Shown: positions 43,747-49,402 of the stretch, piece by piece
Position numbering within the stretch: position 1 is the first letter of the stretch
Layout: the number at the start of each line of letters is the position of its first letter
Origin: a bacterium
Lineage (GTDB): Bacteria > Sysuimicrobiota > Sysuimicrobiia > Sysuimicrobiales > Segetimicrobiaceae
Assembly: GCA_035307565.1 (NCBI GenBank)
Contig: DATGHZ010000040.1
Location: forward strand, 14,201 to 78,200
DNA: 64,000 bases
Direction of reading: 5' to 3'
The notes under the pieces: generated by a model
The model's database searches: none
The model's input: only the letters and a program-made list of their open reading frames with translations
What the model was told of the DNA's origin: nothing
Translations under genes and position numbers: made by a program

Positions 43747-44715
43747 TTAGAGCGAGGCGGCGGCCGGAATGACCTCTTCCGCGATCTCCCGGACCGCGTC
43801 GAGGTCGTCCAGCATGAAGAACTGCAGGTTGAAGCGGCTGATCCCTTCGGCGGTCAACGTGCGCATCTGCCCGACGATCTCTTCCCCCGTTCCGACGAGC
43901 CATCCGGCGTCGCGGAGTTCCTTCGGCAGCGCCGCCGCGGGCGTCGCCGCGCGTGTGGTGACGTACTCCTGCACGACACGCGCGCGCCGCTCGAGCACGC
44001 TTCCGTTCTCGCCGATCAGAATGCCGCCCATCCAGGACCGGCGGATCGCCGCCGGATCGCGTCCGACCTTACGGCAGGCGGCTTCGAGCGTGTGGGTTCG
44101 CTCCCGCACGGCCGCCGGCTGCTGTGCGCCGCCGCAGTTCCATTCGTCCGCGTAGCGGGCGGCGATCTCGAGCAGTTTCGGCCCCTTGCCGCCGATGACC
44201 AGCGGGATGCGGGGCCGCTGCGCCGGCTTCGGCCATCCCGTCCCGCCGTCCAGCCGGTAGTATCGACCCTCGAACCGAGCCGGACCGTCCGCCCAGAGCG
44301 CGTGAATGACCTGAATGCCCTCGTCGAGGCGGCGCATGCGCTCGCCGACACGGGGATACGGAATGCCGAAGGCCTGGTGCTCTCCGTCGTGCCACCCGGC
44401 GCCCAGGCCCAATTCGAGCCGCCCACCCGACAACACGTCGACCGCGGCGGCCTCGCGCGCGAGCATCGACGGATGCCTGAACGTAATCGGACAGACCAGC
44501 GGGCCGAATCGAATGCGGCGCGTGGCGGCCGCGAGGTACGCCAGCGACGGCCACGTATCGAGGCCGGGCCGCGTTGTCACGCCGAAGAGAGAAAACAGGT
44601 GGTCGGAGCGCCACAGCGATTCATAACCGAGGCGGTCCGCCGCTTCGGCGAGCCGGCGCCACCGCTCCCAGGTGAGCCCTTCCTGCCCCTCGATCATCAA
44701 CCCCACGTCGGCCAT
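43747..44715 (-). CDS. LLM-class (luciferase-like) flavin/F420-dependent oxidoreductase
   Basis: MADVGLMIEGQEGLTWERW..LGYESLWRSDH pattern of the luciferase-like monooxygenase family. Confidence 0.8.
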   Translation of the reverse strand: MADVGLMIEGQEGLTWERWRRLAEAADRLGYESLWRSDHLFSLFGVTTRPGLDTWPSLAYLAAATRRIRFGPLVCPITFRHPSMLAREAAAVDVLSGGRLELGLGAGWHDGEHQAFGIPYPRVGERMRRLDEGIQVIHALWADGPARFEGRYYRLDGGTGWPKPAQRPRIPLVIGGKGPKLLEIAARYADEWNCGGAQQPAAVRERTHTLEAACRKVGRDPAAIRRSWMGGILIGENGSVLERRARVVQEYVTTRAATPAAALPKELRDAGWLVGTGEEIVGQMRTLTAEGISRFNLQFFMLDDLDAVREIAEEVIPAAASL

Positions 44716-44718
44716 GGG

Positions 44719-45564
44719 CTACCAGAGATGCTTGAACTTTTTGGCGAACCGCTGCTCCAAGGCGTCTTTATGGAGATGATAGACGGGGCACTTGCGGATC
44801 ACGCAGACCTGCAGCGCCGTGTTGCAATAAGCGTTGGCTACGCGCCAGCATTCCTGGTTGATGAAGTAGGATCGGCAGACGCCGGTGCGCGACTCCGCGG
44901 GTGCCGGGGCCAGGGTATCCACCGGCACGTCGTCGGTCCCGGACGGCCGGTTCTGCCCGGCCGTCTCGACGGGCGCGCGGGATGCCTGGCCCTGCCGTGC
45001 GCGCCGCGTCCCCCCGCTCCGCGGCGACTCACCCGACGTACCGCCGCCCGCACGGGCCGGACGCGGACGCCGCGCCTTCGCCGGGTGCGTCTTGCCGGAC
45101 CGCGATGCCGGCCGCCTGGCGGAGCCCGCGGCCCCTTCGGCCGGCACCGGCGGCGGGAACACGGCGGTCTCCGTGATGAATTCAAACGGAACGGCGGGGG
45201 GCACCGTGCGCTCCGGCGCGGTCTTGCCGGCCGGTGCCGCCGTCTCCGCCGCGTTCCCGGCGGGGGAAATCGGCGAGCCGTTCAAAGGCTGGACCTCGTA
45301 GCGCATCGCCGCCGGCCTGAGATCACCCGGGGGCGGGAGGTCCGCATCGGGCAGCCGGTCATCCGCGGGCGGCAACGAGAGCGGCAGTGTCGCGCCCGCC
45401 ACGGTGGTATCCTCTGCGCCACCCGGTGCCGCCTCCGCGGACGGACCGCGCGGCGCGGGCGGCCGGCGCTCGGGCTCGCGGCCTTCGAAGGCCGCGAGAT
45501 CCCGCGTCGTATCCGCGATGAGTGCTCTAATTCCGCGCCGGAGCGCGTCCCGCTTTTTGTTCAA
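44719..45564 (-). CDS. hypothetical ParA-partner candidate: ParB-like N-terminal peptide, long disordered region, C-terminal Cys5His2 module
   Basis: TTG start 45564 with AAGGAAG upstream; overlaps the parA-like 3' end by 38 nt. N-terminus NKKRDALRRGIRALIAD. About 210 aa Pro/Ala/Arg-rich. C-terminus CRSYFINQECWRVANAYCNTALQVCVIRKCPVYHLHKD...KKFKHLW. No family recognised. Confidence 0.5.
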   Translation of the reverse strand: MNKKRDALRRGIRALIADTTRDLAAFEGREPERRPPAPRGPSAEAAPGGAEDTTVAGATLPLSLPPADDRLPDADLPPPGDLRPAAMRYEVQPLNGSPISPAGNAAETAAPAGKTAPERTVPPAVPFEFITETAVFPPPVPAEGAAGSARRPASRSGKTHPAKARRPRPARAGGGTSGESPRSGGTRRARQGQASRAPVETAGQNRPSGTDDVPVDTLAPAPAESRTGVCRSYFINQECWRVANAYCNTALQVCVIRKCPVYHLHKDALEQRFAKKFKHLW

Positions 45565-46330
45565 GGGCCATCACTTCCTTGGCGAGGCTCATGTACTCGG
45601 CGGCCCCGCGCGAGGAGGGCAGGTGGACGAAGACCGGCACGCCGACCATGCTCGATTCCACCAGTTTGATGTTGAAGTGGATCGCGCTCGCGAACACCTT
45701 CTCGCCGAAATAGTCGCGGATCCCATGCAGGATCTCCTTGCCGATGCTCGTGCGCGCGTCGTACATCGTCGGCACCACGCCGGCGATCTCCACCTCGTGC
45801 CCGGCTTCCTCTTTGACCGCCTTGAGCGTCCGCAGCAGCTGCCGCATGCCGAGCAGCGCGTAATAGTGCGTCTGGATCGGGATGATGACTTCGTTGCATG
45901 CCACGAGGGCGTTGAGCGTCAGCAGGCCGAGGCTGGGCGGCGTGTCGACGATGATGTATTCGTACCGCTCGCGCAGCGGCGCGATTTTCTTGCGAAGCGC
46001 GTTTTCGCGGCCGATGCGCGACGACAGTTCCAGTTCGGCCGCGGCAAGGTCGATCGAGGAGGGCGCGAGGTCGAGGTTCGGGACGTTCGAGGGTGCGACG
46101 ATGCTGGCGAGCTCGGCGCCCTGGCCGTCGCCCGGCACATCTTCCACTAAGATGTTGTACATCGTGCGGGTGAGCGCCGCGGGATCGGTGCCAAGACTGA
46201 CCGTGGCGTTAGCCTGCGGGTCCAGGTCGATCAGGAGCACCCGGCGCTTGCTGACAGCGAGGCAGGCCGCGAGGTTAACCGCGGTGGTGGTCTTACCGCA
46301 TCCGCCCTTTTGATTGACGAGGGCGATCAC
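45527..46330 (-). CDS. ParA/Soj-family P-loop ATPase (orphan)
   Basis: Deviant Walker A NQKGGCGKTT, LLIDLDPQ, IIVDTPPS. 267 aa, GTG start. Confidence 0.85.
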   Translation of the reverse strand: MIALVNQKGGCGKTTTAVNLAACLAVSKRRVLLIDLDPQANATVSLGTDPAALTRTMYNILVEDVPGDGQGAELASIVAPSNVPNLDLAPSSIDLAAAELELSSRIGRENALRKKIAPLRERYEYIIVDTPPSLGLLTLNALVACNEVIIPIQTHYYALLGMRQLLRTLKAVKEEAGHEVEIAGVVPTMYDARTSIGKEILHGIRDYFGEKVFASAIHFNIKLVESSMVGVPVFVHLPSSRGAAEYMSLAKEVMALEQKAGRAPARN

Positions 46331-46405
46331 GCGGGCCGTGGTCGTCCGTTCTACCCCCAGGTCCCCGTCCTCCGTGCCGATGGTCGCACGCCTGTTCGCC
46401 GCGGG

Positions 46406-47772: not shown

Positions 47773-48567
47773 TCACGTGTCTTCGGGTGCGGGACGCCGG
47801 TCGCTCACCAGCGCGCGAAGGCGCGCGAGCGCCTCGCGGAGGATGCGCGACACGTGCATTTGCGAGATGCCGAGCCGCCGCGCGATTTCGGCCTGCGAAA
47901 GGTCGTCGAAAAAGCGCATGCGGATGATCTGCTGGGCCCGCTCCGGCATCCGGGCGAGCGCCCAATCGAGGGTGGCGCGGTCTTCGAGCCGCTCGAGCGC
48001 CTCGTCCTCGTCGCCGACCGATTCCAGCAGCGAGACGCTGTGCTCCTCGTCGCCGTCGCTCGTCTCCGCGTCGAGGGACACGAGGCTGTAGGCGCGGCCC
48101 ACCTCGAGCGCGGAGATCACATCTTCGAAGTCGACGCCGGTGAACTGCGCGATCTCGGGGATCGTGGGCGAGCGGCCGAGGCGCTGCGACAGTTCCTCGA
48201 TCGCGCGCATGAGCGTATAGTTGAGTTCGCGCAGCCGCCGGGGCACCCGGATCGCCCAGAGTTTGTCGCGAAAATGCCGCTTGATCTCGCCGACGATGGT
48301 CGGCGTCGCGTAGGTCGTAAACTCGATGCCGCGGTCGGGATCGTAGCGGTCGATGGCCTTCAACAGGCCGATCTGGGCGACCTGGATGATGTCCTCGAGG
48401 GGCTCGCCGCGGTCGGCGAACTTGCGGGCGAGGTAGACGGCAAGGCTCTCATGGGCCAGCGTCAGTTCTTCGCGGACGTTCGCGCCGCGGGTCTCCTGAA
48501 ATTTTTGGAAGAGGGCCCGGACTTCTTCTTTGTCCAGGAGCCGACGGCCCCGCCGGCGCGTCGCCAT
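47773..48567 (-). CDS. RNA polymerase sigma factor, SigB/SigF/SigG (group 3) family
   Basis: Regions 2-4: QIGLLKAIDRYDP, PTIVGEIKRHFRDK.W.IRVPRR, GISQMHVSRILREAL. Confidence 0.9.
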   Translation of the reverse strand: MATRRRGRRLLDKEEVRALFQKFQETRGANVREELTLAHESLAVYLARKFADRGEPLEDIIQVAQIGLLKAIDRYDPDRGIEFTTYATPTIVGEIKRHFRDKLWAIRVPRRLRELNYTLMRAIEELSQRLGRSPTIPEIAQFTGVDFEDVISALEVGRAYSLVSLDAETSDGDEEHSVSLLESVGDEDEALERLEDRATLDWALARMPERAQQIIRMRFFDDLSQAEIARRLGISQMHVSRILREALARLRALVSDRRPAPEDT

Positions 48568-48573
48568 GGAGCG

Positions 48574-49017
48574 CTAGTCCTGGCGCCGCTTGAGGAGCCG
48601 AAGCTCGGTCACGCCGGATGCGGCATCGTGTCGCGCTTCGACTTCGTCGACCAGGCATTGCATGAGGAACATCCCGAGACGGCTTTCGTCGATCGGCGCA
48701 TCGCCCGTCGCGGGCCCCGTGCCGTCCGCCGCCCAGGCCGGCGCCGGCGCGCGCGCCGACACGAGGACCTCGATGGAACCCGGGGACAGCACGAAGGCCG
48801 TCGTCAGCGGTTGCGTCGCGTCCGGCCGCGCCACGATCAGCGCCGTGCACGCTTCCCCGACCGCGATCTTGAGATCCTCGATCTCGTCGTATGTAAAGCC
48901 CTGCCGCGCGGCCACCGTCGCCGCGGTCAGGCGGGCCACACTCACGAATTCCGGCCGGACCGGAATCGAGATCTCGACGCGCTCGTCGCCGTTCCGCACC
49001 GGCCGGTTCGGCACCAC
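48574..49017 (-). CDS. RsbW/SpoIIAB-like anti-sigma factor with degenerate kinase motifs
   Basis: FTYDEIEDLKIAVGEACT is near-identical to the remembered B. subtilis RsbW sequence. However, the N-box Asn is Ala (TALI), G1 DxGxG is SARAPAP, and G2 is SRLG. GGAG then GTG 49017. Confidence 0.75.
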   Translation of the reverse strand: MVPNRPVRNGDERVEISIPVRPEFVSVARLTAATVAARQGFTYDEIEDLKIAVGEACTALIVARPDATQPLTTAFVLSPGSIEVLVSARAPAPAWAADGTGPATGDAPIDESRLGMFLMQCLVDEVEARHDAASGVTELRLLKRRQD

Positions 49018-49018
49018 G

Positions 49019-49402
49019 TCAATTCTCCGGTTCGCCAAAGTGGGTGGGCTCCTCCAGCGTGGTGTCGGGGGCGCTGCGTCCTTCTTCATAGGCGCGGCGG
49101 ACCCGGTCGCTCCGCGCCTCGAAGGCCGACCGGCCCCGCGCGATCGCGTCGCCGGCCGCGTCCATTGCCCGGTTCACAAAATCGCTGGTGCGCATCCGGT
49201 CCGCCACGTCGCCGGCGGCGCGACGCGCCTGGCCCGCGACGTCGTCGGCCTTGACCCGCGCCCGCTCGCGGAGGCGCTCGCCCTCGCGCCGGAGGCGCTC
49301 ACGCGTCTCCGTGCCGGGCTGCGGGGCAAAGAGCAGACCGAGAGCTACGCCGAACATTGCGCCAACAACGAGTCCCGCGGTGAAATCACGGCGTTCAGTC
49401 AT
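49019..49402 (-). CDS. YtxH-like general stress protein
   Basis: N-terminal TM (FTAGLVVGAMFGVALGLLFAPQPG), then a charged helical region, as in the YtxH family. Confidence 0.75.
   Translation of the reverse strand: MTERRDFTAGLVVGAMFGVALGLLFAPQPGTETRERLRREGERLRERARVKADDVAGQARRAAGDVADRMRTSDFVNRAMDAAGDAIARGRSAFEARSDRVRRAYEEGRSAPDTTLEEPTHFGEPEN

Follow-up and report, generated by a model that had tools for sequence, protein, structure and literature searches.

ATPases of the ParA/MinD family organise chromosomes, plasmids, division sites, carboxysomes, flagella and chemoreceptor arrays. The partner protein determines what a ParA positions; for want of an identified partner, many ParAs are termed 'orphans'. 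The partners dock via a charged N-terminal peptide that stimulates the ATPase, and the remainder of the partner binds the cargo, or is the cargo (bioRxiv 10.1101/2022.06.09.495121; PMC12462528). We describe here a pair of adjacent genes on the minus strand of a 64-kb stretch of the bacterial contig DATGHZ010000040.1 (hereafter the window, meaning the whole stretch that was analysed). The first encodes a ParA/Soj-type ATPase. The second encodes a protein of 281 amino acids (aa), here termed the partner, that can be identified as such from sequence alone, since it carries the canonical docking peptide of ParB on an otherwise unrelated protein. The two genes are best explained as a dedicated, translationally coupled ParA–partner cassette that is conserved across Candidatus Sysuimicrobiota (CSP1-3), and they point to a previously undescribed form of the machinery by which bacteria position or segregate their contents. 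The ParA is of a known kind; the partner family and its C-terminal domain are undescribed.

The cassette shares with the chromosomal ParABS system (Soj–Spo0J) a Soj-type ParA in which the ParB-binding loop is identical and the basic residues for DNA binding are retained, a partner encoded directly downstream of ParA, and the sequence L-x-R-G-(L/I)-x-x-L-(L/I) at partner residues 8–16, as in Spo0J. It differs in that the partner lacks the ParB/Srx CTPase domain, the helix-turn-helix (HTH) and the ParB C-terminal dimerisation domain. The window yielded no parS, and the locus lies beside cca and not in an origin-type setting. The ParA also departs from those of ParABS in having a cysteine in its P-loop (KGGCGKT), and IHFNIKLVESS in place of IPRNVRLSEAP.

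Small ParAs with small non-ParB partners are found in ParF–ParG, delta–omega (type Ib) and archaeal SegA–SegB, where a flexible, arginine-bearing N-terminal tail activates the ATPase and a compact C-terminal domain provides the attachment. ParG, omega and SegB are ribbon-helix-helix (RHH) DNA binders with adjacent centromere repeats, whereas no repeats were found beside the cassette. The partner domain is predicted to be all-helical and is Cys-rich, with no RHH match in Pfam and no predicted N-terminal β-strand, and its docking motif is of the chromosomal ParB type. In PomXYZ of Myxococcus xanthus, ParC–ParP and PpfA–TlpT the activator of a nucleoid-bound ParA-like ATPase is a short peptide at the N-terminus of a partner other than ParB, and this partner is either the cargo itself or a part of it. 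The partner families differ, PomX being a coiled-coil scaffold and ParP and TlpT chemotaxis proteins; unlike the partner, none has a Cys-rich domain or a canonical ParB motif. McdA–McdB is likewise a two-gene set of ATPase and adaptor, the adaptor being mostly disordered, with a charged N-terminal ATPase-interacting peptide, extreme length variation and an invariant C-terminal tryptophan. There is no sequence homology between McdB and the partner, so that a resemblance proposed in an earlier note on this stretch stands for the layout and not for descent. The C-terminal motif of McdB (RVWPD or acidic-rich) lies in a disordered tail, whereas the tail of the partner is folded and basic and its tryptophan ends the five-Cys domain. 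In addition, no bacterial microcompartment (BMC) genes were identified near the cassette, and its ATPase is Soj-like with a signature lysine.

The features of the cassette, numbered along the window, are these.

45527..46330, minus strand: ParA/Soj-type P-loop ATPase, 267 aa, GTG start at 46330 (Pfam AAA_31)
46286..46309, minus strand: deviant Walker A motif K8-G-G-C-G-K-T-T15 with the signature lysine (read from the sequence)
45905..45940, minus strand: Walker-B-proximal loop PPSLGLLTLNAL, ParA residues 131–142, predicted docking pocket (matches the M. xanthus loop)
45650-45682, minus strand: IHFNIKLVESS of ParA, a conserved variant
45571..45580, minus strand: Shine-Dalgarno-like sequence AAGGAAGTGA of the partner gene, inside ParA codons A-K-E-V (read from the sequence)
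45527..45564, minus strand: 38-nucleotide (nt) overlap, in which the last 12 sense codons and the stop of ParA overlie partner codons 1–12
44719..45564, minus strand: partner gene, 281 aa plus stop, TTG start (N-terminal peptide, disordered linker, five-Cys module)
45475..45564, minus strand: conserved N-terminal peptide, partner residues 1–30, MNKKRDALRRGIRALIADTTRDLAAFEGRE (conservation in 76 members)
45517..45543, minus strand: ParB-type ParA-binding motif L8-R-R10-G11-I12-R-A-L15-I16 (spacing and register as in ParB)
44908..45474, minus strand: disordered Pro/Ala/Arg-rich linker, partner residues 31–219 (composition, dN/dS and third-position GC content, GC3)
44722..44907, minus strand: C-terminal five-Cys module, partner residues 220–281 (constraint and structure prediction)

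As read from the sequence, the ParA frame opens with MIALVNQKGGCGKTTT and that of the partner with (M/L)NKKRDALRRGIRALIAD. The earlier note had placed here a complete ParA/Soj ATPase with KGGCGKTT, overlapped by 38 nt by a 281-codon reading frame that opens with a copy of the ParB/Spo0J peptide, continues as a Pro/Ala/Arg-rich low-complexity stretch and contains no ParB HTH or CTPase-like domain. The coordinates above and the results that follow bear out each of these points.

The ATPase matches Pfam AAA_31 with an E-value of 2.7e-57 (194 bits, against a cut-off of 27) and CbiA with 1.1e-23. Its best solved relatives are ParA of M. xanthus (8RAY, 6.9e-58), Soj of Thermus thermophilus (1WCV, 6.4e-52) and Soj of Helicobacter pylori (6IUB). 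Orthologues from 27 species are 67–88% identical to it, and the P-loop NQKGGCGKT is kept in all 25 of those examined. The cysteine of this loop is thus present in 25/25 orthologues, at a position occupied by valine in the ParAs compared. It is unexplained, and is notable beside a Cys-rich partner.

In M. xanthus ParA the residues V116, L150, L152, L155, L187 and L192 form the pocket for ParB, of which L150, L152 and L155 are required for binding (PMC12462528). These residues were mapped onto the 25 orthologues. The loop PPSLGLLTLNAL is identical to that of M. xanthus ParA and essentially invariant, being conserved in all 25, and L150, L152 and L155 are retained throughout. V116 is replaced by leucine in every orthologue, L187 by methionine, valine or alanine, and L192 by valine, alanine or isoleucine, with one threonine. 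The arginine at the YDARTS position (M. xanthus R209), which we take to be the equivalent of R189 of Bacillus subtilis Soj, is present in 25/25, and the equivalent of M. xanthus R238 is lysine in 24/25. Because the pocket and the basic residues are retained, the ParA should still bind DNA and offer a ParB-type pocket. An acidic stretch V(K/R)(E/D)E-x-GH adjoins the pocket as a peculiarity of the family; as a speculation, R9 and R13, extra arginines of the partner peptide, might pair with it. The motif (V/I)PRNVRLSE is widespread among chromosomal ParAs. At its position in the M. xanthus and T. thermophilus proteins the ParA has IHFNIKLVESS, a variant conserved across the phylum, and this replacement suggests a diverged ParA lineage or paralogue.

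The N-terminal peptide of the partner has the consensus M-(S/N)-K-(K/R)-R-(D/E)-A-L-R-R-G-I-R-x-L-I-x-D-T-S-R-E-L-A-x-(L/F)-E-G-R among the 76 full-length members of the family. L8 is invariant, no more than two of the 76 members depart from the consensus at any one of R9, R10, G11 and R13, and in 72 members the motif begins at residue 8. In M. xanthus ParB the ParA-binding motif comprises residues 11–19, of which L11, L15, L18 and I19 are each needed for the recruitment of ParA and R13 is the central basic residue; mutagenesis and NMR show that these positions bind ParA (Osorio-Valeriano et al., PMC12462528). L8, R10, I12, L15 and I16 of the partner have exactly the spacing of L11, R13, L15, L18 and I19. 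The N-terminus of T. thermophilus Spo0J in PDB 1VZ0 reads MSRKPSGLGRGLEALL, and that of the partner MNKKRDALRRGIRALI. LRRGIRALI (residues 8–16) and LGRGLEALL of Spo0J are in the same register and at the same distance from Met1; L8, R10, G11, A14 and L15 are identical, and positions 12 and 16 are conservative. Taken as a helix, the peptide is strongly amphipathic, partner residues 6–17 having a hydrophobic moment of 0.73, against 0.49 for Spo0J. Of the 127,996 six-frame positions of the window, a single one matches the pattern L-x-[RK]-G-[LIV]-x-x-[LIVMF]-[LIVM], and it lies within the partner. No match was found for the 30-aa peptide among PDB sequences.

The partner is a real gene and not a product of high GC content. 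In its reading frame the linker has a GC3 of 0.86, against 0.77 and 0.71 at first and second codon positions, as in the neighbouring genes. There are ∼90 homologues in total, all unnamed or 'hypothetical'; 58 were found by a word-index search, and an exhaustive HMMER search of 1.84 billion cluster representatives with the module profile gave 54 representatives below 1e-10. The partner has no match at E ≤ 1 in Pfam or NCBIfam, so that no ParB/Srx domain or HTH was detected, none in PHROGs or PADLOC, and among PDB sequences only chance matches to scorpion toxins (E 1.8–4.8). A codon-level comparison with seven orthologues gave dN/dS values of 0.07–0.18 for the C-terminal module, 0.18–0.72 for the first 30 codons, where synonymous change is depressed by the overlap with ParA, and 0.5–1.06 for the linker, the alignment of which is saturated. 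The linker frame is nevertheless open in every member, despite a range in length from 42 to 265 aa. Selection has thus constrained the peptide and the module, and left the linker free in sequence and length provided that it remains in frame. Conservation and coding constraint of the reading frame, which the earlier note had left to be seen, are both found.

The genes are found together. One genome per GTDB species was scanned for the partner, yielding 27 loci. Those with informative names are Ca. Geohabitans, Ca. Fervidifonticultor, Ca. Tepidifontimicrobium and 'Candidatus Sysuimicrobiota bacterium', and the NCBI taxonomy places Ca. Geohabitans and Ca. Fervidifonticultor within Ca. Sysuimicrobiota (= CSP1-3); the phylum assignment is taken from these named loci, the remainder carrying generic labels. 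Among the 27 species, wherever the sequence of a locus extends far enough upstream, ParA is the gene directly before the partner, so that here the module always follows a ParA. In two loci (L026 and L027) the tblastn match is restricted to the peptide, yet the full partner protein is present. The stop of ParA and the start of the partner overlap by exactly 38 nt in 21 of the 22 loci that could be analysed. The exception (L013, 2920-2950) has a gap of 29 nt in place of the overlap. The conserved AKEVMA codons of ParA contain a strong Shine-Dalgarno sequence, which reads AAGGAAGTGAT in the window and AAGGAGGTGAT, or nearly so, in the loci outside it. The 38-nt overlap implies that translation of the partner is coupled to that of ParA. 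A tblastn search of the window and the 27 loci found no ParB, and the genes flanking the ParA are cca and the partner; it is to this extent that the ParA can be called an orphan, as had been proposed.

The linker (residues ∼31–219) consists of 85% disorder-promoting residues, with 18% proline. Its charge is segregated in the soil clades, with means of −5.1 for the N-terminal half and +6.4 for the C-terminal half, and the short thermophilic variants have no basic half. The basic C-terminal half in soil clades is rich in Lys, Arg, Ala and Pro and recalls histone-H1-like tails. Hydrophobic islands specific to particular clades interrupt the linker: PFEFITE (window 45169-45186), FEL(V/I)(T/A)(E/D), RPILRLVRD, AEVLAVEVRE and WIVGP. 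None is universal, and 31 of the 76 members carry one or another of them. These islands may be short linear interaction motifs.

The last 52 aa of the partner contain C230, C239, C247, C254, C259, H263, H265, H279 and the terminal W281. In a trimmed and more diverse module alignment of the family, extended by three remote relatives (A5), C230, C239, W240, C254, C259, P260 and E270 are invariant and C247 nearly so, with one serine. Tryptophan is the last residue in 74 of the 76 members. The histidines are not universal. Those of CPVYHLH (window 44770-44778) change jointly to ELN, QLN or NLN in some members, and the first alone is changed in others (YLH, RLH, SLH or DLH), as seen among P0017, P0023, P0055 and P0080; H279 is tyrosine in a few. 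Being replaced in several members, H263 and H265 are not obligatory metal ligands, and what had been described as a compact Cys/His module is indeed a compact domain, better termed a five-Cys module. With five cysteines conserved in a cytoplasmic domain of 60 residues, metal binding naturally suggests itself, and the module presumably binds Zn or an Fe-S cluster. The AlphaFold2 (AF2) model from A5 has a pLDDT of 90.1 and a pTM of 0.72, with five short helices and no strand; it supersedes a first run on full-length rows (A2), which gave a pLDDT of 60.9 and no Foldseek match. The basic tail, ...RFAKKFKHLW, lies within the modelled domain at a pLDDT of at least 83, and the net charge of the module is +6 in the clade of the window. 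Targeting of the membrane by the C-terminal helix, in the manner of MinD, is unlikely, given a hydrophobic moment of 0.28 and the packing of this helix into the domain. Foldseek found no match in the PDB for the model of pLDDT 90. As the sequence libraries also gave none, the earlier remark that the module matches nothing recognised holds, and it defines a new small Cys-rich fold without a solved relative.

The module is not wholly isolated, as rare distant relatives exist outside the context of ParA. Profile searches identified P0095, P0096, P0098 and P0133/P0134, in which modules of the pattern CW...C-x2-C-x-AY...CWE(V/I)...C...C-x4-CPVY occur singly or in tandem. The partner module aligns with P0095 residues 21–66 (C-x8-CW-x6-C-x6-C-x4-CPVY) with an hhalign probability of 96.9% and an E-value of 1.4e-10. 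A homologue search with P0095 returned P0095 itself alone. P0095 and P0133 match the NCBIfam two-CW domain NF045718 with 14.7 and 14.2 bits, against a curated cut-off of 35. Neither the partner nor its module matches NF045718 at E ≤ 10; the module has a single CW dipeptide (C239-W240) and not two, and in comparison with the two-CW and tandem proteins it is without the first CW/CxxC part. A literature search on the two-CW domain found no paper describing it. The distant relatives have the look of a family of Cys-rich modules that is uncharacterised and may be related to NF045718. In loci L028-L031 the neighbours of P0095 and P0133 are DUF2680 and an OmpR-type response regulator, or CoaE and DUF5719.

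The cassette conforms to the rule for partners of ParA/MinD ATPases, and we consider it probable that the partner is the cognate activator or adaptor of the adjacent ParA. The ParA, a Soj-type ATPase, would dimerise on binding ATP and bind the nucleoid non-specifically, which would become coated with ParA-ATP dimers. The partner peptide would most likely fold as an amphipathic helix, with residues 8–16 entering the pocket of ParA, and together with DNA would trigger the hydrolysis of ATP and the release of ParA from the DNA. The linker would be a flexible tether of 42–265 aa that gives reach, and the 60-aa five-Cys domain would confer specificity by binding, or itself nucleating, the positioned object. 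The whole would be a nucleoid-templated diffusion-ratchet system with a new class of partner, and provides a natural test of the N-terminal peptide as a portable ParA 'luggage tag'. The divergence of the ParA motifs favours a separate cargo system, and the cassette may tentatively be taken to position a non-chromosomal cargo alongside a canonical ParAB, a reading that we hold with distinctly less confidence than the pairing of ParA and partner.

Several observations weigh against this picture. A profile of the N-terminal peptide matched designed helical repeats (REELRREVRELIEE) among PDB sequences, and not ParB chains; the case for a ParB-type motif consequently rests on motif, register and context and not on a significant alignment. 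But for its glycine and its register, the peptide looks like any generic amphipathic helix, and even Gly11 is altered in a few lineages, being replaced by valine in ANGP1-type members (LRRVLRPFI in L006/L011), while P0029 has LRREV. On the contigs examined the module relatives P0095 and P0133 have no ParA as neighbour. The neighbourhood of the cassette comprises housekeeping genes (aspS, rarA, mnmA, cca, asnS and rimP-nusA-infB) and offers no clue to a cargo. Finally, near-identical docking motifs predict cross-talk if a canonical ParAB coexists, which sits uneasily with a separate cargo system.

The last point leads to the question of whether ParB has been replaced or supplemented in this widespread phylum of soils and hot springs. 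In the first case the partner would be a centromere- or nucleoid-bound activator of the only Soj-type ParA in a cell lacking canonical ParB. It might then be a descendant of ParB that has kept the N-terminal peptide alone, with DNA bound by the basic half of the linker and the five-Cys domain. This reading seems to us unlikely, yet much is consistent with it. The ParA is nearest to chromosomal ParA/Soj, and the docking motif is of the chromosomal type, which plasmid and other systems avoid as a guard against cross-talk (PMC12462528). The order of ParA followed by partner mirrors that of soj-spo0J, the cassette is single-copy and lies in a housekeeping block across the phylum, the linker half and the module are basic in the clade of the window, and no ParB was found in the window or the loci searched. 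On the other hand, members of the thermophilic clades lack the basic linker half and have a module that is roughly neutral by manual count. No repeats or centromere-like sites flank the cassette, and the canonical parS, TGTTNCACGTGAAACA, has no match at up to three mismatches in the window, to which the search was confined. The IHFNIKLVESS sequence points to a diverged paralogue, and the locus is outside an origin-type context. The supplements of the papers on the CSP1-3 phylum contain nothing on parA or parB. Should these genomes prove to have no ParB, they would offer a rare case in bacteria of segregation driven by Soj without the ParB CTPase clamp. A bolder form, in which a protein made of the 16-residue docking peptide of ParB, the tether and the five-Cys domain has replaced the CTP-dependent clamp as the sole activator of ParA, giving a ParB-independent and possibly metal- or redox-gated segregation or organisation of the nucleoid throughout the phylum, is a shade less likely again.

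The partner could instead be a regulator or sensor with no cargo, in which the five-Cys domain senses metal or redox state and the protein gates or titrates ParA, for example by competing with the peptide of ParB or by sequestration. Such a role would be in keeping with a small, helical domain of the cytoplasm that has five conserved cysteines, and with the existence of distant relatives that are small, stand-alone Cys-rich proteins adjoining a response regulator; a ParB-type motif makes competition plausible. Two of the relatives weakly match NF045718 two_CW_domain, but at 14–15 bits against the cut-off of 35, and in regions absent from the partner. Moreover, a long disordered tether of variable length is a trait of adaptors more than of proteins that regulate allosterically, and we regard this explanation as rather improbable, somewhat more so than the replacement of ParB.

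If the likeness of the peptide to ParB were coincidental, the partner might act independently of ParA and be co-transcribed with it for historical reasons. The match of the peptide profile to generic designed helices in the PDB, and the position of the cassette within a long co-directional run of unrelated housekeeping genes in which no terminators were detected, would agree with this. They are outweighed by the 38-nt overlap and the internal Shine-Dalgarno sequence kept across deep clades, the exact ParB register and residues of a motif that is unique in the window, the pocket kept in ParA, and the fact that the pair never separates where other neighbours vary. Absence of a functional link is thus very improbable.

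Least likely of all is an adaptor of the McdB type whose C-terminal tryptophan docks on BMC or carboxysome shells: the charged peptide, disordered body and C-terminal tryptophan (terminal in 74/76 members) are alike, and PMC11604079 assigns the Calvin–Benson–Bassham (CBB) cycle to some CSP1-3 families, but carboxysomes are absent from the text of that Sysuimicrobiota paper, no shell gene is among the identified neighbours in the loci, the tryptophan closes a folded, high-pLDDT basic Cys domain and not a disordered acidic tail, the cassette is in all clades and the CBB cycle in some alone, and the ParA is Soj-like with the signature lysine. In McdBs the invariant C-terminal tryptophan is the sole residue common to all, and is needed for association with carboxysomes (bioRxiv 10.1101/2023.11.21.568049). 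A plasmid-like par cassette with an adjacent centromere was rejected, there being only chance-level repeats and essentially no intergenic space. An origin in defence or phage was also rejected, the partner having no PADLOC or PHROG match and the ParA only weak, generic P-loop matches.

The ParA–partner pair, preferred here as a dedicated cassette, is the sole invariant unit of the locus; other neighbours vary. As far as the flanks reach, the loci share a block comprising mnmA, DUF948, a YtxH-like gene, (anti-sigma, sigma), cca, ParA, the partner and, later, asnS. In the window the anti-sigma/sigma pair is upstream of cca, which is upstream of ParA, and an LLM oxidoreductase flanks the cassette on its other side. 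This agrees with the non-origin context given in the earlier note. The anti-sigma (HATPase_c_2) and SigB/F-like sigma genes (window 47773-49089) lie between the YtxH-like gene and cca, and no anti-anti-sigma gene was seen beside them in the window. Since the pair is found in soil clades only (L001-L011, L026 and L027), and is absent from thermophilic clades (L012-L025), it does not belong to the conserved core.

The LLM oxidoreductase lies 3′ of the partner in the closest relatives of the window only, adjoining it in the window, L001, L002 and L032/L033. In the window the ATG of this LLM/Bac_luciferase gene is 4 nt past the partner stop (44715-44721), and nothing was found on the coding strand in a search for terminators, promoters and RNA elements. 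From the 4-nt spacing and the lack of a detected terminator on this strand, the cassette is probably co-transcribed with the oxidoreductase in this genome.

In four loci cca is split from ParA by a gene on the opposite strand (L014 3142-4305, L024 3640-4836, L016 and L025). Read from the sequence, with no scan of a family library, it is a putative fructose-1,6-bisphosphate (FBP) aldolase/phosphatase; it was considered as a clue to the cargo and set aside as unrelated.

The start of ParA in the window is uncertain. The frame is open upstream of the GTG (minus strand 46331-46375, ...GTEDGDLGVERTTTARVIAL...), and a GGAGGA lies ∼9 nt ahead of a CTG at 46360, so that translation may begin at a non-canonical codon and give the protein a few more residues at its N-terminus. 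The orthologue in L032 is called as 293 aa, and the thermophilic clades have a clear ATG (MSKVIALVNQKGG).

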